Below the pieces are notes generated by a model. It was not told the origin of the DNA, made no database searches, and saw only the letters and a program-made list of their open reading frames with translations. From assembly GCA_017499595.2 (NCBI GenBank), contig CM039005.1:868001-932000 (forward strand): DNA of 64,000 bases, in the 5' to 3' direction. Shown here piece after piece: positions 825 through 17,092 of this stretch (its first letter is position 1; each line of letters begins with the position of its first letter). This DNA is from Psilocybe cubensis. Taxonomy: Eukaryota. The position numbers and the translations under genes are program-made.

Positions 825-1160
825 TACTGTTGCAGCCCGTGGTTGCTTGCATGGTGCGGAGATGTATCACTACAGGTGGAGAGTTTATCTGAGCTTTCAT
901 TAATTATTCATTTTTTCTACGGGATTCAGTGTTAATCAGAATTTTATTAGGGCAAATCTTTAAGGGTATTACACGCACATACACGGCGTAATGAACGATT
1001 TATGTACATCAGTTACTACATGACTAAAACATTGATCATATGCACGAGTGAGCGTTTAATGGGAACGATGTGTTGAAGATCGACCATGACAGAGGGGCAT
1101 CAAACTTTCAGCTGCTGTACGTAGTTTTACATGACAGTTCCCAGGCACGGTTTCCCCCAA

Positions 1161-1333
1161 TGTTAGAGTTCCCTCTAACGTAGACACACACACGTGCCTG
1201 TAGTCACATATCACACAGTATTTGTAGACACACCCGTAGCTACGTAGCCTCAGTTCCTTCTTTGTTAGCACACCCAACACGTTCTGGTCCTTCGTCTCTC
1301 TCTCCCGCCTCGTCTCCGGGTCTCCTCCTAACA
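1161..1333 (+). repeat. 5' LTR
   Basis: 173 bp with TG...CA ends and a 6-bp terminal inverted repeat; identical by eye to 7414-7586. Confidence 0.97.
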
Positions 1334-1880
1334 TCAAGAAGGAACTCTAACACATTCAAAACATCCTCTCTCATCGCCTTTTGGCATTTCAATACCACCG
1401 TTTCCCAAACTGCCTGGACTACCTCGTTCCCCTTCGATCCTGCCCATCCAGCAGGATATCGAAGCCTGTACCGACACTTGTGACCGCTACTCTTGGCAAT
1501 TATTTTTTTTGCAAAGAGACCTCTTGTTGCACGAAGAAACCCTGCGTATTGCTTCCAACCAGGGTGCATCTTTTGATACCCTTCGGCGACTTACTGCTGC
1601 TGTTATAGACTGTCAACGGTCAATCTCACATACCAGAGACCTTCTCGCTTCCGCTGAAAGACAGTTGCGTTACCTACACGACCAGGCTGATCGCGTTCGC
1701 GACCTACAAGATTGTCTGGCTACTCTGTCTCGCCGCATTGATAATCTGGCTTTTACCACCTCTCTTAGCCCTGCTATTTTGTCTGGACTTCACGCCCGCC
1801 TTGACGATATTCTCAGCTCTCCTCTCTTCTCCAGGTCCTCTACCCCAGACAGCTTACCTGACCTTGAACCCTCCGATTAG
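1332..1880 (+). CDS. AUG-less open frame (ORF0) upstream of gag, helical/coiled-coil-like
   Basis: Stop-free frame from just after TAA 1329-1331 to TAG 1878-1880 with no ATG. It includes the track ORF 1509..1880 and has a Leu/Arg/Asp-rich, heptad-like sequence. Confidence 0.45.
   Translation, partial: HQEGTLTHSKHPLSSPFGISIPPFPKLPGLPRSPSILPIQQDIEACTDTCDRYSWQLFFLQRDLLLHEETLRIASNQGASFDTLRRLTAAVIDCQRSISHTRDLLASAERQLRYLHDQADRVRDLQDCLATLSRRIDNLAFTTSLSPAILSGLHARLDDILSSPLFSRSSTPDSLPDLEPSD
1336..1346 (+). promoter_or_regulatory. Primer-binding site of self-priming type
   Basis: AAGAAGGAACT, 2 nt after the LTR end, is the exact reverse complement of LTR 1252-1262 (AGTTCCTTCTT). There is no TGG start, which a PBS for a tRNA 3'-CCA would have. 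Confidence 0.7.
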
Positions 1881-1976
1881 AAGCGCATATATTCACCCTT
1901 TTGGCGCATACACCCACCCTCTCTGTTTTTTTCTCTTTCCTTTTTTTAATTCGCTTCTCGCTTATCGTTTGCACTC

Positions 1977-3161
1977 ATGCCTCCCGGAAAAAGTAAAGGT
2001 CGTTCGGTCTCCCCCCGTCGTGGTCGTGACGGTAGTGATGACGACACTGTGTCCCGAATTGACCCTGCCATTATCGCTCTCATTAAGGCTAGCCAGGAAT
2101 CCAATAAAGAAACTATGAAAGATATTCTCGAACTGTCGCGTATACAAGCCGAAACTATGTTCAAATCATTCCTCGCGTTACCCCAACTCCAAACCTCTAC
2201 CCACTCCTCTGCGACTACCTCTACCGCCCGCTCTGGTGATTCACGCGCTTATAAGGTGCCCTTTCCAGGTGCCTTCGACGGCTCCTCTGATACTGTCGAA
2301 GACTTGCTGGCCTCATGGCGTAACTTTTTTCACTCCGACCCCGAAGCATACAAAACCACTGATTCCAAAGTACGCACCGCTCTCAGTTCTTTCAAGACCG
2401 GCACGCCCGCTGTCTGGCGTAACCAGCTCATTGAAGAGCTAGAGTCTGGGCAATGCGTCTTAACCAACTGGTCCGACTTTGAGGAGCGCGTGAAAGACTC
2501 CTTCCTGTTCCATTTCTCGCAACAACGCGCGGCACGCGAGATCATGTGCATCCGTCAGAACTCCACGCCCACTCAAGAGTTCATTATTATCTTCGAGAAC
2601 CTTGCCTTTCGCTCCAAGTTTAACGACGAAGCGTTGATCCAATGCTTCAAAATGGCCTTGGATAAGCGTATTATGGAGGAGATTGGACGAACACACCGTG
2701 AGATGCCCACATTCGCGGAATGGAAGAGTGCCGCAATCTTGATGGCTCACAGACTGCGTGAGACTGATGCCACGGTGACTCCGGTCGTCAACACCACCGC
2801 CACCTGGCGTCCTCCCCCTTCTTTCACCTCCACCCCTTCCACTGTTCAAAAGTCTAGCAACCCCCGCCCCGCTGCTCCTGCCCCCAACGCGACTCTACCT
2901 GCAAACATCTCCGCTGCTCCGAATCGACGTGCCGCCCTGCCCTGCTTTAACTGCGGCGTATTTGGCCACTTCATGCGAGTCTGCCCCAAACCCAAAGATC
3001 TCGAATTCCAACGCAAATCACGCGCAAAACTGGAACGAGCTCGGGCCGTCCTCGAGTGCTTTGATGCTTTGCCTGATGACGACAAGCATGAGATTCGATG
3101 CGTTGATGTTGACGAAAGTGCCTTGTTTGATGATTCGGATTTTGTTTCTTGCGTCGAGTGA
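1977..3161 (+). CDS. gag: Retrotransposon Gag
   Basis: 394-aa ORF with a retrotransposon capsid-like region (PGAFDGSSD...NWSDFEERVKDSF) and zinc knuckle CFNCGVFGHFMRVC (CX2CX4HX4C). Confidence 0.95.
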   Translation: MPPGKSKGRSVSPRRGRDGSDDDTVSRIDPAIIALIKASQESNKETMKDILELSRIQAETMFKSFLALPQLQTSTHSSATTSTARSGDSRAYKVPFPGAFDGSSDTVEDLLASWRNFFHSDPEAYKTTDSKVRTALSSFKTGTPAVWRNQLIEELESGQCVLTNWSDFEERVKDSFLFHFSQQRAAREIMCIRQNSTPTQEFIIIFENLAFRSKFNDEALIQCFKMALDKRIMEEIGRTHREMPTFAEWKSAAILMAHRLRETDATVTPVVNTTATWRPPPSFTSTPSTVQKSSNPRPAAPAPNATLPANISAAPNRRAALPCFNCGVFGHFMRVCPKPKDLEFQRKSRAKLERARAVLECFDALPDDDKHEIRCVDVDESALFDDSDFVSCVE

Positions 3162-6100
3162 GTAGTACGTCCTCGCCGCTTCTGTACAACAACCCTGTAA
3201 TTACTCCCAAATTGCATGTTGCATTGTCTCCAAAATCCGTACCTCTGCCCGTGTTACCTGTTTACGCGACCCCTCAACCTTCATTATCCAATTCTGTATT
3301 GACTCCTGACAAGCCCTCTTCTTCAACAACATCACCCAACTCCGACTACCCGACACCAACACTCCTGCCCGCGCACCCACAACCTCCAACTATGGCACCC
3401 GATTGCATTCCATATTCAGACCTCTTTTTATCCTGTCCTGAGGATGATCCACCAGAGCTGCAAGCCCCAGATGCCTCTGATGATTCGGATGAAGATTCGC
3501 CAACCAAGCCTGCTCAACAAACCTCCGCCCACGATGATGCATCTGTCTCTATGACACACGATGCAAGTCCACCACCGGCCCCACGCGACTCTCTACTTTG
3601 CAGCCCGCCCGTCGCTGACCACACAGACTGCCCGCCTTCAATCCCTACACCTGTCCGCACCGTCCTGTGCAACTTGCGCCGATTACGCAGCACGCCTTGG
3701 CGAACCGAGAGCCTGCTCAAATCCTGGGCCCCAAAGGAGCGTTGGGACGACATTGACGATGATCTGATTGCTGCTCTTTGCGATCTCCCCTGGACCGACG
3801 CCGCCAAAGTCCTCCAGCAGCTCAAGAAGCCCCGCGACTACATCTCCCGCATGGGGAGTAAATGCCTTGACATTCCAATGTCGGCTGCACCCCCAGGCTC
3901 GACCTCTTTGGTGTCGCTGAAAGCGCTCTTAGACAGCGGTGCCACTGGTTGTTACGTGCACTCCGATTTTGTCAAACTCAATGGATGGGTGACTGAGCGG
4001 CTGCCCCACCCCGTTAGCGTTTACAATGCAGACGGAACTCGCAATGCCAACGGTGCTATCACAGATGTTGTTTACCTTGTCATCCGCATTGAAAACCATG
4101 TTGAGCGACTCCGCCTTTCAGTCACCAACACGGGATCATCTTCCCTCATCCTCGGGCACTCCTGGCTCTGGTTCCATAATCCGCTTGTTGACTGGCGAGA
4201 GGCCAAGCTCTGCTTTGCACGCTGCCCCACGTCCTGTGGTGCTGACGTGCTGCCGACTTCGCACCCTGATGGCGAAACCGTGAATGTTTGCCGCGAAGGA
4301 CCCCAGCTCCGTGAAGACGACATCTTTGATGACAGCCCGGGCCCCTTCACGCCGGTCTCTGCTGCGGAATGGGCTGACGCCTTTGCTGGTGAACTTGCCG
4401 ATGGTGAATCGATGTGCGCGGTTGACCTCAATGAGTTCACGTCCGAACAAGTCCATGGCTCATGCGACCACCGCATTTCTCACTTTTTGCGAACTCAACG
4501 TGAAGCAGCTTCATATCCCGACCGCTACCTGAAGGAATTTGCACCTGTTTTCTCCAAAGAGGAGTTTGACGAGCTCCCACCCCGTCGCCCATGGGATCAT
4601 GCTATTAACCTGAAACCAGATGCAAAGTCGTTCAAAGCAAAGCCGTACCGTCTGTCGCCCGCTGAAACCTCGAAGGTCAAGGAATGGATAGAAGAGGAAA
4701 AACGCACTGGCCGTATACGGGACTCCATCTCTCCCTATGCCGCCCCTTTCTTCTTCATCCAGAAAAAGGATGGCTCACTGCGCCCTGTGCAAGACTACCG
4801 ACGCCTGAACGATATCACGATCAAGAACCGCTATCCATTGCCGCTCATCTCTGACCTCATGGACAAGCTTAAAGGCGCGAAAGTATTCACCAAACTTGAC
4901 GTCCGCTGGGGTTTCAATAACATTCGTATCAGGGAAGGCGATGAGCACAAGGCTGCCTTTATCACGGAGTTTGGACTTTTTGAGCCTCTTGTAATGTTCT
5001 TTGGATTGACAAACTCACCAGCTACCTTCCAGAATATGATGAACGATCTGTTCAAGGATCTCATTGCTGGCGGCCATGTCGTGATATATATGGATGACAT
5101 CCTCATCTTCACTGATGATGTCCAGTCCCATCGACATCTTGTCCGCAATGTCTTGCAGATTCTGGAGGACAACAAGCTTTATCTGCGGCCAGAAAAGTGC
5201 TGTTTTGAGCAGGACCGTGTGGAATACTTGGGCGTCATTGTCGGCCACGGGAAAATGTCCATGGATCCCAAGAAAGTTGACGCTATCACCTCTTGGCCAA
5301 TCCCGCGCTGTCGTAAGGACGTCCAACAGTTCCTCGGTTTCGTCAACTTCTACCGTAGGTTTATCAAGAACTTCTCCCGCATTGCCGCTCCCCTGCATGC
5401 CCTGGGTGGTTCGGCGCCTTGGGTATGGGACAATTTGTCAACATCCGCCTTCAACGAGCTCAAATCCGCCTGCGCTTCACACCCGGTGCTACTTCTTCCC
5501 CGCGACGGTGCCCCATTCCGCATAGAGGCAGACAGCTCTGGATACGCAACCGGCGCGGTGCTCAGCCAATTTGTTGACAATTCCTGGCAACCGGTCGCGT
5601 TTGCTTCAAAAGCCCTCAGTCCCGTTGAGCGCAACTACGAGATACATGACCGCGAACTACTGTCAATCATGAGGTCTCTCGATGACTGGCGACGCTACCT
5701 CCACGGCTCCGATTCTCCTGTTGAGATCCACACCGATCACAAGAACCTTCAGTATTTCATGACCGCTCAGAAATTGAACCGTCGTCAGGCTCGCTGGTCC
5801 CTGCAGCTCGCTGAATTCGATTTCGTACTCGTCCACAAGCCAGGCCCGACCATGATCTGCGCAGACTCGTTGTCCCGCCGCCCCGACTACGATAAAGGTG
5901 TTGGCGACAACGAAAACGTCACCTTACTGCGCCCAGAACACATTCGACGTACTGCTGAATGCTCAATTGGGGATGACCCCGTCCTGGCTGACATTCGAAC
6001 TCACCAGCACCAAATCACTGAAATGTGGGAAAAGCACAAGAACCTGCCTGGCTGGTCCCTCCACGACGGCTTGCTTTCATGGCATAACCGAATCTTTGTG

Positions 6101-7402
6101 CCAAACAAAGGCAACTTGCGTCAACGAATACTCGCCGACTGTCATGATCACCAATCCGTAGGCCACCCTGGCCGGATGAAGACCATGGAACTCGTCCTGC
6201 GCGACTATTGGTGGCCGTCACTATCAAAAGACGCGAAGCGTTACGTTGATGGATGCCCCACCTGTCAATCAACTAAGCCTCTGAGGATGGCGCCCGCGGG
6301 CCTACTGACCCCCAACGAAATCCCTTCCTCCAATTGGGAGATCATTTCCTGTGATCTCATCGTGGACTTACCTAAATCTCGCGGCTTCGATTCGATCTTT
6401 GTCGTCGTCGATAGACTCTCAAAAATGGTTCGTATCATCCCATGCAAAAAGTCAATCACTTCTGAGGGTCTCGCGCGCCTCTTCCGCGACCATGTCTGGA
6501 AAGACTTCGGACTGCCACGACGCATCATCTCCGACCGTGGTTCAATCTTCCTGTCAAACTTTACTCGGGCCCTCAACGACCTGCTAGGCATTTCACAGAA
6601 CGCGTCCACCGCATTTCGACCTCAAACAGACGGACAAACTGAGCGCGTCAATCAAGAAATCGAACAATACCTACGGATCTTTGTGAATAACAGGCAAAAT
6701 GATTGGGTGGAATGGCTTGCATGCGCCGAATTTGCTATCAACAATAAGATTCACTCGTCCACTGGCTTCTCGCCCTTCTTCCTAAACTATGGCTCCAACC
6801 CCCGCCGAACCCTGCAACCCGCACGCCTCTCGGACGACCGTGTCCCCAAAGCTCTTGAATTCGCCTCTCAAATGGATTCCCTCGCGAAGGAATCCGCTTC
6901 AGCGCTAAACCTCGCCGCTGATGCAATGAAGCGATCCTATGACACCTCTCACCGCGCTCCACCCGTCTTCAATGTTGGCGACATGGTGATGCTCAGCGCC
7001 TCCGACATCAAGTCCTCACGTCCGTCTAAAAAGCTCGATGTTAAGCGTCACGGACCTTTTCCTGTGACGAAACGCGTTGGCATCCAGTCTTACACCCTCG
7101 ACCTACCGGCCTCGTGGTCGATCCACCCTACTTTCCATGTCTCTAAACTCTCCCGTTTCATACCAGCAGAATTCGATTCCCAAACTTCACCCGCGACACC
7201 AACACCTCCCCCCGCGTTACCACCCCCAGACATTGCAAGTGTGCTCGGCCACAGGGCCCTGCGCAGTGGAACACAGTTCCTCGTGCTGCTCGATGGCTGC
7301 ACAGAGGAAGACGCTTCGTGGTCAAGCCACTCATCCTTCCCTAACTCTGAAGTACTAAACAATTACATACGCCTCCACAACATCCCGGACGCCCACCTTT
7401 AA
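3134..7402 (+). CDS. pol: Retrotransposon Pol (protease, RT, RNase H, integrase, degenerate chromodomain) in the -1 frame relative to gag
   Basis: LLDSGATG (aspartic protease), YMDD (RT), EADSSGYATGAVLSQ and NYEIHDRELL (RNase H), HHCC zinc finger, ISDRG and QTDGQTER (integrase), HGPF motif, C-terminal chromo-like segment. The frame opens at 3134 after TGA 3131-3133. Confidence 0.96.
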   Translation, partial: FGFCFLRRVSSTSSPLLYNNPVITPKLHVALSPKSVPLPVLPVYATPQPSLSNSVLTPDKPSSSTTSPNSDYPTPTLLPAHPQPPTMAPDCIPYSDLFLSCPEDDPPELQAPDASDDSDEDSPTKPAQQTSAHDDASVSMTHDASPPPAPRDSLLCSPPVADHTDCPPSIPTPVRTVLCNLRRLRSTPWRTESLLKSWAPKERWDDIDDDLIAALCDLPWTDAAKVLQQLKKPRDYISRMGSKCLDIPMSAAPPGSTSLVSLKALLDSGATGCYVHSDFVKLNGWVTERLPHPVSVYNADGTRNANGAITDVVYLVIRIENHVERLRLSVTNTGSSSLILGHSWLWFHNPLVDWREAKLCFARCPTSCGADVLPTSHPDGETVNVCREGPQLREDDIFDDSPGPFTPVSAAEWADAFAGELADGESMCAVDLNEFTSEQVHGSCDHRISHFLRTQREAASYPDRYLKEFAPVFSKEEFDELPPRRPWDHAINLKPDAKSFKAKPYRLSPAETSKVKEWIEEEKRTGRIRDSISPYAAPFFFIQKKDGSLRPVQDYRRLNDITIKNRYPLPLISDLMDKLKGAKVFTKLDVRWGFNNIRIREGDEHKAAFITEFGLFEPLVMFFGLTNSPATFQNMMNDLFKDLIAGGHVVIYMDDILIFTDDVQSHRHLVRNVLQILEDNKLYLRPEKCCFEQDRVEYLGVIVGHGKMSMDPKKVDAITSWPIPRCRKDVQQFLGFVNFYRRFIKNFSRIAAPLHALGGSAPWVWDNLSTSAFNELKSACASHPVLLLPRDGAPFRIEADSSGYATGAVLSQFVDNSWQPVAFASKALSPVERNYEIHDRELLSIMRSLDDWRRYLHGSDSPVEIHTDHKNLQYFMTAQKLNRRQARWSLQLAEFDFVLVHKPGPTMICADSLSRRPDYDKGVGDNENVTLLRPEHIRRTAECSIGDDPVLADIRTHQHQITEMWEKHKNLPGWSLHDGLLSWHNRIFVPNKGNLRQRILADCHDHQSVGHPGRMKTMELVLRDYWWPSLSKDAKRYVDGCPTCQSTKPLRMAPAGLLTPNEIPSSNWEIISCDLIVDLPKSRGFDSIFVVVDRLSKMVRIIPCKKSITSEGLARLFRDHVWKDFGLPRRIISDRGSIFLSNFTRALNDLLGISQNASTAFRPQTDGQTERVNQEIEQYLRIFVNNRQNDWVEWLACAEFAINNKIHSSTGFSPFFLNYGSNPRRTLQPARLSDDRVPKALEFASQMDSLAKESASALNLAADAMKRSYDTSHRAPPVFNVGDMVMLSASDIKSSRPSKKLDVKRHGPFPVTKRVGIQSYTLDLPASWSIHPTFHVSKLSRFIPAEFDSQTSPATPTPPPALPPPDIASVLGHRALRSGTQFLVLLDGCTEEDASWSSHSSFPNSEVLNNYIRLHNIPDAHL

Positions 7403-7410
7403 GAGGGGGG
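7401..7410 (+). promoter_or_regulatory. Polypurine tract
   Basis: AAGAGGGGGG, 3 nt upstream of the 3' LTR. Confidence 0.9.
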
Positions 7411-7413
7411 TGA

Positions 7414-7586
7414 TGTTAGAGTTCCCTCTAACGTAGACACACACACGTGCCTGTAGTCACATATCACACAGTATTTGTAGACACACCCGTAGCTACGTAG
7501 CCTCAGTTCCTTCTTTGTTAGCACACCCAACACGTTCTGGTCCTTCGTCTCTCTCTCCCGCCTCGTCTCCGGGTCTCCTCCTAACA
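7414..7586 (+). repeat. 3' LTR
   Basis: 173-bp copy of 1161-1333, followed by TSD CCCAA. Confidence 0.97.
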
Positions 7587-10563
7587 CCCAAGCTGCAAAG
7601 AGTAATAGAACTAAGGTCTTGCATGCTTCTGTTATACGCAATCCACAGCAGTCACGGTTGAGTAGCATTGGATAACCAGGTACAAGAACTGTTCGACTGT
7701 TCGACAATCTCCCCAGGAATATGAGGCCTTACGAGTACCAGGGTTCTACACGATAGGATAACAGTCATTGGCTGCCACCGTCTATAGCGGGTTGATTGGG
7801 CAACAGGATTCACATGTCGACATGCCTCGGGATCAAATCGAGGTTCAAGGCGCTCGTATTAAGTTTATAGCAGTCATCGAGAAATCAACGCCCTTGGTCG
7901 TCAGAGGGCATATATAGATCGAGAAGAAGATTTATAAGATCCAGTAGTGTGGGGCGGTCCTGAGTGGATTCGATACTCAAGGTTCGGATTGCTGGACGGG
8001 CCCATGTTTGTGATGATTGTGCAAAGCGATAAATCGAGGATATACAGGCTTCGTAAGGCCTCTTTAAGCCATATACTTGTTGGTGGTCCGAGTGCCCATT
8101 GAGCCGAATCCCAGAGAGACATGTTCATACACTACAAGATGTGCACAAGGGTGCCCAATAATTAAGAACCAGGACAGAAAATGGGAGATGAGACACAGTT
8201 AAAGAGGCTTGGAAACCATTCTAGATGGTCGCACCGACATCGCGACTTCATTTCAACGAGAGGTTGACTGACATACAGTTCTGCACATTGAGTCACCACC
8301 AGTGTCATCCCCGCTGACTTGACGGGTCTTTCAACCTGAAACCGTCGTCTTATTGCCAATGAGTCATGGACATCTCGGTCGTGAGTTGTTTATTTCGTAC
8401 TGTGGGTGGAGGAGGCGGTGAAACCGGTTAGGATACAGATGGCGCAACATGAAGTAAAGAAGAAATGTAATACTTTGGTCAGAAACTTCACTTCGAGCGG
8501 AATCTAAAAATAGTCTCACGCTGCTTTGTCATTCGAACCCAACCATCTACAGTTTTACGACCAAGTCTGCTGTAATCACGGTCATACGATGCTTTGCTGT
8601 GTCGAAACACCCCAATCCTAAGACGATTCGATATTTTGCCATCGCGGTTCCACTTTCTCGTCGTTCCATGACTATTCTTCCTGTAATCTAGGAAGACCTC
8701 ACTACAGCCTACAGCTTCGTCTAAAGTGGCGTAGTTATCTCGACCGATTGGATAAAATGAATCGGATGGTTTCTCTGGGACTACTTTCTCTGTTCACATG
8801 TGAGGTAACTATCGTTTGGCTTCTTCTTTCGAGATGCTCAACTCTGAGACCCGTGTTAAAAGCTGTACGAAATGCGTGCATCGACGTCTTCCCTGGATTG
8901 GCGATATTTCACACTTTGCGTCGCTGGATCTATGAAGATCGTGATTTTCATCTGACTTACAGCAGGTAAGGACGCATGGTGTCCTCGGGAAATGTAATTT
9001 GTGGAGCTCTCTGATACTGAGGTATGTTGAAAGCTGTTTAGTATTGCATGAGCTGGTATGGCTAACCGTAGTTCATCAGATTTCAATACATCCCTGTTCG
9101 TTGCAACTTGTGAATTCACCAGCAGCTTACGCCCATCGGTCCTTCTCTCATACTCATGTACAAGCCTTCACGATCCCAACAAACTTTCACAGGCATTCTC
9201 TGAGCCTCGCACAAATGACCGATCTTCTGGATCGGGGAATATTGCACGGTCTTTCTTGATAACAATGAATTCTTCCACTGCATACCACACGCGCTATCGC
9301 TTGCCTTCGTCCTCGAATTCATGAAAAGTGGAGTGTCGCCTCGCTTGTATCTGTTGCTAATATCGGTCATATGGGTACATAAACACATACAACGCTTGAT
9401 CAAATTGGTTCTCATTTGCGATGTCTATGGGAGTGGCTTTCGTATTTGTGCTGGACTCCTGTCTCTCTATAATGTCCGTTATTGCAAGAATTCAAAATCA
9501 TCATGTGCGTCGTCTGTTCATCTTCTCCTTCTTCCTTTTTGACAAAATAGATGCATATATGTCCATACAGAGTATTCTTGCCGCTGGGTGTCCGCGCCCG
9601 TAAGACAGACGCAGGAGAAACAATGCGGTGATCTCTCGACGTGGTGGCAAGACAGGCTGAATGCATGCCCAGGAGGACCTGATTTTCAGCCTCATGGCAA
9701 ATTCTCAACCCCAGATCCTGGTATCTAGAACGTTTCCACCGTTTTTGGGCGCATAAAGGATGTTGATTTCCTAATTTGCTATAGTTTTTCTTGCTCTCAA
9801 GCTTGCAGGACCCTCATTGTGTCGTCCAGATGGTTCGCCCGAAAATGCTCCTAAATTGAGCACATTTTTCATTTCTACATATTGTGTAGATCCCTTTCAA
9901 ATCGAGGACATTAATTTCATAGCCGTTATTTGCGCCACCTAGCGTCAAGTATCCTTCACCTACCGGATATCAAATCCATTCGCAATGATTCAACACCTAT
10001 AGCGTCCACTTTCGATATAAAAATGAAATACGTCCGATACATGCTGCAATAATGCTGAAAGCGTGGGTTTTATACCTTCAGTGTTTTCATGGTTTCGTAT
10101 GTGTCAGGTTAGTTTCGCAAGTCCGTCACGCACCACAGGTTAAAATTAATAAATTTACTGAAGTGTTGTATATCGAAAATGGCTTTGAAGCCTATTTTTT
10201 AATTGGCCAAAGATAGGGGATTCTTTCGGTGTGCAAAGCCGACTGATACGAGGAAGACCGTACTGTTCTGGACTAGTTATTAGTGGCAAGGCTAGCCCAA
10301 AATGCCAGATTTATCATTGTTCGACAAGCACGGCATAATGAATTGATAATCGCGGCACGCGTAAAGCCTGCAGTGCAGACGACCGAACAAGGTGGGTAAC
10401 ATCAGGCTGTCAGCGTTTACGCAGCTGACATGGATTGTAAAGATAGAAAGTTTTCCCATCCTGACAACGACAAACCCTTCACAACCTCGGCCCCCACCTT
10501 TCAACACCCAACCACAACAAGTCCTCGTCTTCGTTCGGTAGAAACTTACCTCTGTGTATCATA

Positions 10564-13500
10564 ATGCCTGAACAGTCCAAGCCTTCCACCCCCACGAGTT
10601 TCCAGCCGAATGCTGGAAGTATCGCCAATTTTTTTCGCCCTAACCGAGCTGCGCCTAATATCGGCAATGCCCTGGTCCTCTCGAGTTTCACTGGCCTGGC
10701 GCCTGTTGACTCTCAATCGATCGCCCGTTTAACAAGTGCGCTAGAGAGCTCTTCCGATGCTACCGGTATGGGCCTCGGCCAGGTTATGCTTGCTCTTAGG
10801 ATTTTATCGTCTGTTGGAGATGGCATGGCGCCTTTTCCAGCCTTAAAGGGCATTGCAGGGATTGGCCTTGAAATTATGAATGTTATAGTCGTAAGCCGTG
10901 ATGTCTTAAACGAAGGTATCGGTCTGATAATTAATCTTTCCATGCAGAACTTCCAAAGCAATGGGGACGCTATGCGTGCTCTTGCTCTTCGTATCTACGA
11001 GATGATTCGCACCATTAACGAAGGTAGTCAAAATGGAAGCAACGAGAGCCTTCGTACACTTACAGACCAGTTTGAACGGTGGGAACTTGTTTATTTTTTG
11101 AAGAATTGTCTCTCTTAGTCTTATATGCTACCAGCGATCTTTGCAAGATTCTTAACATTGTCAAAGATATGGCTTCCCAGAACATCGGTCATCAAGTCAT
11201 ACGTGCAGAAGTCATCAAGGCGAAGCTTATTGATTGTACAAAGCTACTTGATCAATATACGGATAAATTTCAGGTAGACCATGGCCCTTGTATTTACAGT
11301 ATGATCTTTTCTTACACATCCATCTTTAATAGGTTGCGCTCGGGATAAATCAACAACAAATCCTTGTTCGTCAACAAGAAAATCTCTCTCGTCAACAGGA
11401 GAGTGTTGATAAGATTGTGGCTATGCTTGAGGTGAATTGCATTGAAAATTAAAAAATAACACGGAACTAAAATACACGTCTAGAAGCATACCCTGTCGAC
11501 CCCTGTAAACAAGTGTGTTAATTGTTGACTTCGGTCTGTCGAATCAAAATTGACAGTTTGTCGTAGCTTGCTCATTTCTGCAATTGCGCCCGCTCCACCG
11601 ATGCACTTTGTGGGACGAGATGATCTTGTCCTTGAAGGAATATCCCACATAACTGATGCAAATCTTACTTCTTCGGCACACATTGCAATTCTTGGCCATG
11701 GTGGTATTGGTAAAACTAGTCTGGCGCTGGCCATTCTACACCATGATATGTCCAAGGCTGCATTTTCGGGACGTCGCTTCTTTATTCCGTGCGAATATCT
11801 GAAGACCGGCCTTGATCTCGCTCAGGCAATCATTCATATTCTCGGTGGCTCTATGCTAGGCCAGGAAAGCGACGGCCTTACTGTTCTTCGACAACAGCTT
11901 TCCAACTTTGGTGAAATGCTGCTTGTGATTGATAACTTTGAAACCCTCTGGCACGAGAGTACTTCACTTGCTCAAATCAAAGTGGCCTTGGAGACCATCA
12001 TGTCTGTCTCATCTGTTTCAGTAATTGTGACTATGAGAGGCTTTGAGCCACCATCTGGATTTAATTGGAGTTTAATTCTGCCACCTCAAGGTTTAGGTCC
12101 TCTTTCACTTGATGCAGCCAAACACATGTATATGCGGGGTCAGTATATGGTGCCAGAAAGCTTTGAATGGAATAGGGATCTTGAACTTCTCCTTACTGAA
12201 ACTGATTGTGTTCCTTTGGCTATATCTCTTTTATCTGCACTTGCTCATTCAGATCCTCGGGTATATACACCTACTAGACTATTGCAGCGGTGGACAAAGA
12301 CCAAAACCAACCTATTGAAAATTCCTGGAGTACAAAGTAATAAAATGGCAAGTGTTGCCATATCAATTGATGTATCTTTGCATTCAAAAGCTATAGCAGA
12401 GAATCCTGATACTCTGATATTGCTCCAAATTCTTGCTTTTTTACCAGAAGGTCTTCCTTATTGGGATGAATTGGTTGAATACATTATACCAGACACCCGG
12501 ATAGAGGATCCATTTGGCACAGTGGAGATTTTATGCCAAACATCTTTAATTTTCAAAGCAGATAATAATTCATTGGCATTGCTATCACCAACAAGACATT
12601 ATATTAATCAACAAAGCCTTGTTGAAAAATCCCAATTCAACAATGATATTCAACAGATTTATAACTTTGTCCAACTATGTATTGCCAATGGAATGGAAAA
12701 TTTAATTAAATTTGGGGTGGCAAATATTACTCAAGTTATTGAACATTTCCTAGTTTTGCATCCTACTACTGAAAATGTGCAAACTGCTTTGCATTGCTCT
12801 GAAGTTCTATTCCAACATGCACAGTATATGTCCAATTTAATGAATACTATTACCAATATGGCTGAAAAATTGAATATACCACAACTCCTTGTCAAATGTG
12901 TAGTCCATCAACGTGATATATTAATGGCCTTAAATATGTGGATGGATGCAGAACAAAAAAGTCAACTAGGCTATATTCTTTATCAAAAACTTGGTGATAA
13001 TGCTGGAATGGCTGAGTGTCTCCACAATATTGGGCATAATATGAAAATGCAAAGCAAATATAGTGAAGCTATTGAAATGCATACATTGGCATATGAGATT
13101 TATATCAAACTGGGAAAACTAAAGCAAACAGCAAATAGCTTAAAAGCTATTGGAAACAATTTATGGGTATTGCATAAACATGAGCAGGCAATTGAGAAAT
13201 TAACTGAGGCATTAACCATTTATACCCAGTTAAAGGATTTAAATGGTATGGGACATTGCATGAAAGGTATAGGTAATAATTTGAGGGCAGAAAAAAATTA
13301 TTCAGAAGCAATTAAAATGCATACAGCTGCGTATAACTATTATTATCAAAAGAAAAATAAAGAAGGCATGGCTGGAGCCTTAAATTGCTTAGGAGATGAT
13401 TTTCGCATGATACAAGAATATGAAAAAGCAGCTGAAAAACACACAGAAGCATACAATATTTTTAAGGAAATCAATAATACTTTGGGATTGGCTGCATCTC

Positions 13501-13781
13501 TTGATAGCCATGGTGATACATTAAGACTCCAGGGTGACTATGCAAAAGCAGCTATAAAACATGAAGAAGCATATAAAATTTTTGTCAAATATCAATATTG
13601 GCATGGTATTGGAAATAGCCTCAATAGCATGGGAGACAATTATAAAGAGCAAAAAAAATATCCAGAGGCAAAAGAAAAATATCAAGCTGCTTATGATATT
13701 TTCAAATCACTTGACAACAAAAGCAAAATGGAAAAATGTGATGAGAATTTAAAAGAAATTGCTCAATATATTTATAACTAA
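10564..13781 (+). CDS. NLR-like STAND protein A: MLKL-like N-terminal helical domain, P-loop NTPase, TPR array
   Basis: Exon model about 10564-10890, 10948-11078, 11135-11273, 11333-11431, 11484-11512, 11567-13781 with GT-AG introns. Walker A GHGGIGKT, Walker B LLVIDNFE, VTMRG, CVPLAI, and about seven 40-aa TPR units. The N-terminal PFPALKGIAGIGLEI...NGDAMRALALRI resembles fungal MLKL-NTD-like domains. Confidence 0.88.
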
Positions 13782-13822
13782 AATCATTTCACAAGGCTGG
13801 ATGGTATTTTAATTTTTGTAAG

Positions 13823-16800
13823 CTAGCTAGACTGCACTTGTTTTTCTAAATACATTTTTATGTTTTCCATATTTTGAATAATTTGAGCCACTTTGCCTTT
13901 GTTTCCTACTTGATCAAATATCTGGTAAGCTGCTTGGTATTTTGAATAAGCTTCTAAATACTTGTGTTGCATTTTCAAATTATTAGCTGTGCTATAAAGA
14001 CAATTTCCCATTCCATGAAAATATTGAAATCTTTTAAAAATTATAAAAGCTTCATGGTGTTTTTGTGCAGCTTTTTCATATTGCTCTTGCATACTTAGAA
14101 CATCACCTAAACTGTCTAAAGAAGCAGCCATCCCAAGTTCATTTTTAAGACTAGAATAAATCTCTAATGCAGCTGCATGCTTTTGAATAGCCTCATTATA
14201 TTTTTCCAAAGAAAGTAAATCATCTCCTATGCATATAAGGCAGTCTGCTATTCCCTCTTTATTATTTGTCTTAATAAAAAGATTATATGCAGTCTGATGA
14301 ACTTTTAATGCTTCAGCATATTCTTTTTGGGACCGTAAAGTGTTGCCTAGCCCTTTCAAAGTAATTGCCATCCCCTTAACATTGTGGATATTTGAATAAA
14401 TCTCATATGCTAAATTGAGATTTTTAGCTGCATCTGCATACTGGCCTAGGGATCTTAAAATAGTTCCAGTAGCCTTTAAAGAACTTGCTAAACCGTGCTG
14501 ATTACCAAGAATTAAATAAATAGCATAGGCACTATTGTGACATTTAATAGCTTCCACATACTTGCTCTGCATTTTTAATGCATGGCCTTGAGCTTGTAAT
14601 GATTTTGCTATTTCCAATTGATTTTTGGATTGACTATATAGCTCATATGCCATTCTGCATTGTTCTTCTGCCATAGCCCATAAATTCATGCCCATAAGAA
14701 GATTATTATAATGGAGAAGATATCCAGCTAGAAGACTCTTTGGTGCATCTATATTTTTAATAATTGGTATAATTTGCTCAACCATGCTTGACAAATTCAT
14801 TTGAAGCTCAGACTCCAAATATTCTGATAACTTCAGTACAGATTGTGCAAGCTCCAAGGTTGGCCTGATTGACACAAGCCTTATTAAAATCTCCGAAATA
14901 TTAGCCTTTCCAAGCAATGCAATATGGTTGGACTGAGATTGCATACAGTCATGCATAAACTTGTAGATAATCTCCAGGTCTTTCTCCAACCAGATAGAGT
15001 TGAATTGTTTCTGTGCTTGAATATAGTAGCGTGTTGGAGAAAGCATAGTCACAGAATTATGAGATGATTTATATACTAGAGCCGCTCTGCATAGGACGTC
15101 GACTGCCACATACGGATCTGCTATTCCGGGCACAAGGTCTTCCAAAATGATATCCCAATGAGGAATGCCTTCAGGCAGAAAGGCAATAATTGCTAACAAA
15201 CGTGTGGCATCTACACAATCAGTTATAGCAGGAACCCGAAGAGACAATTCAATGGATACAGCAATGCTTGTTAATTTGGTTTGCTCTGTGGTTGATATTT
15301 GTAGCAGCTCTGTTTTTATCGCACACCATTTGGCATAGAGCTCTGCACAGGTGAACTGCCCTCGAAGAACAGAAAGCAATGAAATTACAAGAGGGATACA
15401 ATTGGTTTCAACAAGGAGTTGGTCAAGGTCATGCTCTGATTCAGATATTGAAGGAGCCAGATTACTTGGGAGACCATTTTTTAGAAACATATCTTTAGCA
15501 GCGTTGAGTGCAAGAGGTCCTAACCCCTCAGGCGGCAGGATTAAACTCCAAGAGGTATTGTGTGGCGGTATATCACCTCTCATTGTAAGTATCAAAGCAA
15601 GCGATTGGGCAGAAAAAACAAGTTCCAGAACCCTTTGCACCTCTGTAAGCGAAGAGCTTCCAAGCCACAATGTTTCAAAATTATCAATGACGAGCAAAAT
15701 GTTTCCTGCGTAGATTAGCTGTTGAGAGAGCTTTGCCAAGATGTCTTGTTCGTCCACAACCATGAAGCTGCCACCGAGGGTAGAGATGATGGCTAGGGCA
15801 AGGTCAAGGCCGGATTTAAGTCCCTCACAGGACACGAAGAACCTTTTGTCGCCAAAGGCTGTCCGAACACTGTCAGCATGTACTGTAGCAAGAGCAAGAC
15901 TGGTTTTCCCCATGCCTCCAAGGCCGAGGATGATCACACGGGCACTCGGCGTCTGCAGGATATGTTCTACGCCATGATGGACGAGGTCATCCCTTCCAAC
16001 AAAATGAGAAGGTGGAAGAGGAAGATGTCCAGAATCCTTGGAAGGGAACAATAAGACTCGATCCTGCACAAAGCAAACCAGTTGTGAAAATCGTGAGCTG
16101 ACATACAAGATGGAAAACCATCACCTTTGATATATTGGAAATATGACCTTTGCTAACAGCCAAATCCGCCAACTGGGCGTCCTGCCGTACTAACATCTGC
16201 TGCTTGTGTTTGAGAAGGCTCGTCTTCGAGATAGATTAAGCTATAGTTCAAAAGCTTCATAATACGAACGTACCTTGATCTTGTCCACATATCCATTGAG
16301 TATTATATCACACTCAGCCAGCTGAACGCTGGCAGCTTCGGGGTGGATAAGATGCTGGACTGTATTTTCCTTCCCCACAGCCGTTACAATCTCGAAAATC
16401 TTGGAAAAATCACTGCATCGTCGTTTCAGCTCGGGAAATTTCGAGCAAAGATTGAATCGCAATTCACTAACCGTTTAAGTTCCGAGAACTCTAAATGACT
16501 GTTGATATCCACCCCGGCCTTCGACACATCAAATAGCATACGAACTAGATCGTATGTACGAAAAGCAACTGGACGGGATTTGGCTCGATTTTTGACCGCC
16601 AGCTAAATACGTCAAAAGATGAGTGTGCGATTTACGCCGGGGTGCCACATAAGCAACACAGGATCAAGCTACTAAAACGGTGAAGGAACTTACGTCGGCG
16701 GCATCGATGATTGTCAGCGCCAGCTTAGCCAGATCCTGGCACTCTGCAAAATTCACAGACTGTTCGTTTTCATAATGATCAGCTCGCAAGGACGCAAGTA

Positions 16801-17092
16801 TTCGCAGACCGAGTCTAGCTTGATCAAAATCAATGGGGTCGACGGGCATGTTTGCATTGACGCTGTCGATCGCAGAGGGCAAAAGAGCGAGACCGTCGAT
16901 TGCAATCGGAGCTGCAATGGAGATCCCAGAACGCACAAGTGCGTTACCTATGTGTGGCGCAGAGATGCTGGGCGTATAGGGGTGCAGGAGGCCACCCATA
17001 ACGTCAGCTGAGTGCGCAGTCGATGATGAAGTGCGCGAATGAGCACTAATGGATTCGGATTTAGAGTCGGTGGGTTTATTGTTGCTGGCCAT
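13823..17092 (-). CDS. NLR-like STAND protein B, paralog of A
   Basis: Spliced gene from ATG 17092 (track ORFs 16664..17092, 16241..16462, 13823..16108). Walker A GLGGMGKT, Walker B LLVIDNFE, LTMRG, CIPLVI; the TPR array is colinear with gene A. Confidence 0.87.

Follow-up and report, generated by a model that had tools for sequence, protein, structure and literature searches.

The window analysed here, a 64,000-nucleotide stretch of contig C8 of the Psilocybe cubensis genome assembly (46.6 Mb in 21 contigs), carries two paralogous genes of the fungal NLR type, A and B, which face each other tail to tail (Table 1). The stop codon of A occupies positions 13779-13781 and that of B positions 13823-13825, leaving a separation of 41 bp, and the 3' untranslated regions of the two genes probably overlap. 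The initial annotation of the window had described intact convergent paralogues with a similar exon layout, and both points were confirmed: the models built from the sequence equal the P. cubensis database proteins P0001 (A) and P0067 (B) in every letter, and exons 2, 3 and 4 measure 131, 139 and 99 nt in either gene, with an extra exon of 29 nt in A. The facing 3' halves, which encode the repeat arrays, have lost nearly all of their CpG dinucleotides. We consider it probable that A and B are complete, all-in-one NLRs derived from an old local inverted duplication, each most likely acting alone, and that their 3' halves were scarred by CpG methylation.

Judged from their sequences, both proteins are tripartite fungal NLRs, in which a helical N-terminal domain is followed by a STAND NTPase and C-terminal tetratricopeptide repeats (TPRs). 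The Pfam profiles nSTAND1 (37.2 bits for A and 39.9 bits for B, cut-off 27.1) and TPR_12 (101 and 107 bits, cut-off 30.1) passed their thresholds, while NACHT (18.4 and 14.2 bits, cut-off 26.7) and NB-ARC (18.5 and 15.7 bits, cut-off 23.5) stayed below theirs. The Walker A and Walker B motifs, which had been described as intact in both genes, and the downstream STAND motifs are indeed preserved in A and B in an alignment of 16 relatives. The two proteins share 40% identity overall, namely 27% in the helical N-terminal domain, 55% in the NTPase, 35% in the helical/winged-helix part and 44% in the TPR part. Within each TPR array, repeats are identical to one another at 4-18 of 40 residues. Compared in register, the units of A and B are identical at 8-23 of 40 residues, and the divergence between the two arrays equals that of either from the Crucibulum relative (44-45%). 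No support was found for gene conversion between the two genes, the best DNA match being 66.5% over 478 bp and the patterns of shared TPR residues being even (33/36/36).

Table 1. Positions of genes, predicted domains and other features in the window
Feature	Position	Strand	Remark
Gene A, MLKL-like/nSTAND1/7xTPR NLR	10564..13781	+	6 exons, 979 aa
Gene A exons	10564-10890, 10948-11078, 11135-11273, 11333-11431, 11484-11512, 11567-13781	+	all introns GT..AG
A short N-terminal motif, residues 30-48	10651..10707	+	low model confidence
A predicted MLKL-like four-helix bundle, residues 91-207	10834..11356	+	two extra helices ahead
A nSTAND1 NTPase, residues 255-399	11604..12038	+	37.2 bits; Walker A 11694-11717
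A seven 40-residue TPR units	12912..13778	+	
Gap between stop codons, 41 bp	13782..13822		
Gene B, paralogous NLR	13823..17092	-	5 exons, 1002 aa
Gene B exons	17092-16694, 16602-16472, 16412-16274, 16223-16125, 16063-13823	-	
B predicted MLKL-like four-helix bundle, residues 115-230	16203..16750	-	two extra helices ahead
B acidic loop, residues 104-115	16748..16783	-	directly ahead of bundle helix 1; the 'insertion' of the initial annotation
B nSTAND1 NTPase, residues 276-422	15566..16006	-	39.9 bits; Walker A 15902-15925
B seven 40-residue TPR units	13826..14707	-	
AT-rich core of CpG erosion spanning the two 3' halves	11900..14900		o/e 0.13, fades out by ~15500
Spliced RNA upstream of A	8577..10563	+	five GT..AG introns, single-copy; last piece enters A exon 1

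CpG loss over the facing 3' halves

The observed/expected ratio (o/e) of CpG was 0.08-0.16 in the three kilobases from 12001 to 15000, whereas none of the remaining 61 kilobases of the window had a value below 0.56. Among 200 background kilobases, taken from 20 regions on 9 of the 21 contigs, the minimum was 0.42 and none fell below 0.4. The loss lies at synonymous positions and is specific to CpG: CpG-capable synonymous sites still hold CpG at 2/138 sites in the 3' part of A versus 39/105 in its 5' part (p 2e-14), and at 2/66 versus 60/188 in B (p 2e-7), which makes 4/204 for the combined 3' parts. Likewise, C was kept before G at 1/84 sites of the A 3' part versus 72/233 before other bases, and at 1/36 versus 31/133 in B. 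The synonymous-site test rules out amino-acid composition as the source of the loss; a family-wide trait is also ruled out, since C before G is retained at 35-68% in eight further frames with TPRs. As an observation, the CpG footprint on these NLR sensor arrays is robust.

CpG loss is linked to repeat arrays elsewhere in the genome. Around 20 NACHT loci, four of 144 kilobases had an o/e below 0.4, all of them within two genes of the NACHT-WD40 type, around whose arrays of 129-bp repeats they centre. When 33 further loci were taken from the best-scoring matches of repeat searches, CpG-depleted WD40 or ankyrin arrays were found in 5 of the 8 loci with a periodic identity of at least 0.80 and in 0 of the 25 below it (Fisher p 2e-4); two of these five were known to be depleted when picked, and without them the proportion is 3/6. 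The two NACHT-WD40 genes, L171 (G000:C1:3913500-3923400, positions 5085-6879) and L188 (G000:C1:3875000-3882500, positions 2805-4630), are related, inverted and ~40 kb apart; each has 14 WD40 units of 129 bp, with a CpG o/e of 0.14 and 0.05, respectively, and the long frame of L188 has an internal stop within the WD40 array. Highly similar ankyrin arrays with a CpG o/e of 0.00-0.24 lie at L197 (C10), L210 (C16) and L212 (C8), and equally similar arrays at L190, L194 and L206 are undepleted.

Three points weigh against methylation drawn by repeats as the explanation for A and B. Three of the eight highly similar arrays are undepleted. The arrays of A and B are exceptions to the link with repeat similarity: their periodic DNA identity is only 0.53-0.54, though above the 0.34-0.38 of nine other TPR loci, and the low GC content of A and B inflates their own values somewhat. 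Finally, third-position C outside CpG is somewhat reduced too, and CpG deamination is therefore only part of the story.

The poor fit of A and B to the pattern of the other depleted arrays, together with a CpG trough that is centred on the junction and spans both genes, would suit a regulatory unit, in which convergent transcription over the 41-bp gap yields overlapping RNAs that direct methylation and either repress both genes or render them mutually exclusive. There is a precedent for methylation by convergent transcription in Neurospora (PMC3764098); nevertheless, the methylation described there is dynamic and promoter-enriched (PMC3764098), depleted arrays of P. cubensis occur without a known convergent partner, and a convergent NACHT pair on contig C7, 253 bp apart within a 76% identical inverted repeat, has normal CpG. 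We thus find such a unit quite unlikely. The C7 pair also weakens the case for convergence, or for an inverted duplication, as a sufficient cause of CpG loss. Its locus (L170, G000:C7:884000-893900) holds three NACHT paralogues, two as direct copies (89%) and one inverted (73-76%) that ends 253 bp from its neighbour; a tandem array was not found there, and CpG is normal.

Predicted N-terminal domains and relatives

AlphaFold models of the N-terminal domains, based on 64-row alignments, were confident (pLDDT 86 for A and 84 for B). According to DSSP, two leading helices are followed in both models by a core of four, in which a further, short helix separates helices 3 and 4. In a structure comparison run against 48,161 chains, the predicted bundle of A aligned with MLKL (6ux8) over 116 residues with Z 10.7 and a root-mean-square deviation of 2.6, joint-best among natural matches, and that of B over 114 residues with Z 9.7 and a deviation of 2.6, its best natural match; plant MLKL, MLA13 and NRG1 followed in the ranking. 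Both predicted domains may thus be MLKL-like bundles, in line with the initial annotation.

Several results nevertheless count against an MLKL-like identity. The Z-scores against MLKL lie below the bar for helical bundles (~13), and designed proteins outrank MLKL. Foldseek returned nothing at E<=0.001 for either domain (A against 2msv reached E 0.96), and Pfam MLKL_N (PF22215) matched neither A nor B at E<=1. On the other side, the Agrocybe relative P0005 has a weak MLKL_N match (E 0.0054, under the cut-off), more distant relatives carry MLKL_N, and the Atlas neighbours of A and B include MLKL_N, MCAfunc, RPW8 and HeLo clusters. Because these neighbours and the weak matches in relatives accompany the fold, MLKL-like remains the best reading of both predicted domains.

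The N-terminal domain of B had been described as the more diverged of the two and as carrying an insertion. The former is supported. As for the insertion, the extra residues are real, the acidic loop of B being six residues longer than the counterpart in A, but the loop sits ahead of the counterpart of MLKL helix 1 in the superposition and hence lies outside the bundle; its length is not conserved either, as it is shorter in the B-type protein of P. cyanescens. The short motif ahead of the bundle (residues 30-48 of A) also occurs in exon 1 of B, in the P. cyanescens protein and in the Agrocybe relatives, and is absent from the Pleurotus relative.

In a tree of 27 rows, one clade (100/100) brought together A and B, a fragment from P. 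cyanescens and the Crucibulum, Gymnopilus and Agrocybe proteins; within it, B and the P. cyanescens fragment were sisters (100/99; 56% identity). The duplication is therefore older than the split between P. cubensis and P. cyanescens. In the NTPase, A is 60% identical to the Crucibulum protein and 55% to B. The sisterhood of A and B was absent from the trees of the NTPase and of the helical domain, yet the approximately unbiased test did not reject it (p 0.07). The tree of the TPR part alone joined A and B at 88/91, where a shared composition may attract them. The P. cyanescens protein (P0100) is annotated with 332 aa and ends soon after Walker A, which may reflect a broken gene, an assembly break or mis-annotation.

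The clade includes a single member from Crucibulum, a single one from Gymnopilus, and four Agrocybe records on four different contigs. No relative was met as a pair, and no A-type protein of P. cyanescens was found, in searches of protein records that are limited by length, clustering and annotation. A word-based search with the N-terminal domain of A, among 2410 candidates of 538-1714 residues, recovered only A itself. Of 137 loci in a metagenome scan, 80 were kept, all distant (best segments 20-43% identical); a convergent second copy was seen in none of the 38 loci examined, and one of these 38 had a kilobase with a CpG o/e below 0.4 (0.37).

Transcripts, strains and the upstream retrotransposon

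RNA-like contigs were available from two runs of one study. They cover the 5' end of B, and in both runs the third intron of B (16224-16273) is spliced as modelled. No coding intron of A was seen spliced in these contigs, which leave 10736-15872 uncovered, a blank that says nothing on expression. The spliced RNA upstream of A is probably either a long 5' leader of A, possibly rich in upstream open reading frames, or an upstream non-coding RNA; if its pieces belong to one transcript, a continuity that we assume, the leader would be ~1.7 kb long, with 32 ATGs and a longest frame of at most 61 codons.

In each of X3 and X5, DNA runs from a second study, a single contig spans 7592-16390; the two contigs show 92 and 100 differences from the window, and no coding indel is among the variants listed for them. 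Background divergence in X3 and X5 is ~1% over this range. In the N-terminal coding region of B (16361-16587), both runs have two alleles, one of them with 17 differences in 227 bases. Either the edge of a haplotype or balancing selection acting on the effector domain of B could account for this stretch in the one study that contains it. A Ty3/Gypsy-type long terminal repeat (LTR) retrotransposon with identical 174-bp LTRs, gag and pol frames and normal CpG occupies 1160-7586, 3 kb upstream of A. Its insertion looks polymorphic, since the long contig of X3 and X5 leaves the window sequence at 7592.

A rival reading is that A and B are silenced genes in slow decay, with the CpG loss as heterochromatic erosion and the open frames as recent survivors. 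The AT-rich, CpG-poor 3' halves would fit such a decay, as would the retrotransposon upstream of A, a second database model of B that ends ahead of the TPRs (765 aa) and the short annotation of the P. cyanescens relative. Nevertheless, ~1000 codons (A 354-979 and B 645-1002) are open despite a near-total loss of synonymous CpG, and purifying selection is therefore needed. As the NTPase motifs are also all intact, coding indels are not listed in the two other DNA runs, and spliced RNA is found at both 5' regions, we regard decay as highly improbable.

Possible pairing, probable methylation and the diversity of NLR sensors

The initial annotation had proposed that A and B form a two-component system in which B senses or regulates and A executes. 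The part of that reading that concerns fungal NLR-type genes with predicted MLKL-like bundles agrees with our analysis; the division of labour does not emerge from it. Both genes are complete and symmetric, with a bundle, NTPase motifs and seven TPRs each, and neither carries an integrated extra domain (in the profile scan and the alignment of 16 relatives) or a degenerate effector or NTPase, the difference being a modest one in helix 1. They lie tail to tail rather than head to head with a common promoter, and the same genome holds another convergent pair of paralogous NACHT genes, that on C7.

In plants, RRS1/RPS4- and Pik-type pairs are examples of sensor/helper NLRs. A and B resemble plant sensor/helper pairs (PMC12258605) in being adjacent, inverted and strongly diverged, but differ from them in the tail-to-tail orientation and in having no shared promoter, integrated domain or degenerate partner. 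Among Sordariales, 225 clusters of two NLRs were described, 13 of them head to head (PMC12258605), and most fungal NLR neighbours are therefore arranged otherwise. A search of the open-access literature, supplements excluded, returned no report of tail-to-tail fungal NLR pairs or of the A-B pair, although convergent pairs may figure in the cluster tables of PMC12258605.

Two observations do weigh against independent action. Helix 1 of B is less hydrophobic than that of A (0.87 versus 1.33) and more acidic, as is that of the P. cyanescens protein, and the long retention side by side fits cooperation as well, the divergence of A from B being as deep as that of A from Crucibulum. If the genes do co-function, B might sense or restrain while A executes, or the two might join in a mixed oligomer, with selection keeping the linkage. 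Such co-function is consistent with adjacency in spite of deep divergence, with the helix-1 signature of B kept in P. cyanescens at 56% identity, with the occurrence of both 5' regions in spliced RNA-like contigs from the same two runs and with the contiguity of A and B in two further DNA runs. Nevertheless, a net negative helix 1 is also found in four of the five other relatives compared, NTPase motifs, repeat number and domain content show no asymmetry, the orientation is unlike that of plant pairs, the searches of relatives described above met neither a pair nor an A-type P. cyanescens protein, and clusters of two NLRs are common in fungi. No positive support for a two-component system emerged, and co-function of A and B appears unlikely to us.

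The closest described class is that of the basidiomycete MLKL-like (BaMLKL) NLRs, of which ~600 sequences have been described (Wojciechowski et al. 2022, PMC9815663). In BaMLKL proteins, an MLKL-like core of four helices, with one more helix at the N-terminus and a short one separating helices 3 and 4, is joined to a STAND NTPase and repeats (PMC9815663), an arrangement that the predicted models of A and B appear to share. Unlike BaMLKL proteins, A and B miss Pfam MLKL_N, have an NTPase for which nSTAND1, and neither NACHT nor NB-ARC, is the matching profile, and carry, before the bundle, two predicted helices along with a short conserved motif. A and B are probably further members of a described class, and the clustering of fungal NLRs is already known.

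Under the reading preferred here, that of two complete receptors acting alone, A and B would have been retained through divergence in what they sense. Binding of a non-self ligand to the TPR array may release the autoinhibited STAND NTPase, and oligomerisation driven by ATP would then cluster the N-terminal MLKL-like bundles, which may harm the membrane so that the hyphal compartment dies. This proposed activation path, in which binding at the TPRs leads by way of STAND oligomerisation to a damaged membrane, is taken from what is known of NLRs and MLKL (PMC12881547).

As to the scar, germ-line CpG methylation may have targeted the tandem TPR arrays and spread 0.3-1 kb past them into the helical regions; deamination would then have stripped nearly all CpG while selection held both frames open. 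The arrays were probably more alike formerly and may in that state have drawn methylation; the Gymnopilus relative still has near-identical TPR units. Maintenance methylation, or assistance by convergent transcription, may explain why the mark outlasted the divergence of the repeats. In mushrooms, CpG is the main methylated context, methylation lies in repeats and spreads to neighbours, and methyl-CpG turns into TpG (PMC6191308, PMC13297926). The footprint on A and B resembles this methylation of Agaricomycete repeats in being CpG-specific, repeat-associated and apt to spread; however, the latter was described for transposons and adjoining genes (PMC6191308, PMC13297926), whereas the footprint lies inside single-copy, intact coding genes, and the adjacent young retrotransposon, unlike A and B, is CpG-normal.

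A parallel is offered by the Podospora NLRs with high internal conservation (HIC; het-d/het-e, NWD) under repeat-induced point mutation (RIP), where a repeat defence likewise scars repeat-bearing NLRs by C-to-T changes and leaks into neighbouring domains (PMC1805685, PMC13449251, PMC4986451). Unlike RIP in Podospora, the context at A and B is CpG rather than CpA/CpT, the host is a basidiomycete, and the scar lies on arrays of open genes. HIC requires at least 85% identity among repeats over 100 residues (PMC4986451), and A and B are unlike HIC NLRs in lacking such conservation (4-18/40 residues; DNA 0.53-0.54). It is attractive to speculate that CpG methylation of NLR sensor arrays acts as a standing RIP-like mutator, with convergence sustaining the mark and A and B held at the RNA or chromatin level as one co-regulated, co-mutated and possibly co-acting unit, albeit we judge this extension decidedly improbable. 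CpG erosion in basidiomycete NLRs was not reported in the open-access literature searched, supplements excluded.

If A and B truly co-function, they would represent a fungal NLR-NLR unit, which the accessible text of a 2025 review does not mention. The CpG scar, in turn, may matter for how basidiomycete NLR sensors gain variation, a question on which we found RIP in Podospora as the published case tying NLR diversity to genome defence. A CpG footprint on the sensor arrays of open genes is a marker that needs nothing but the sequence and can be scored in any mushroom genome.

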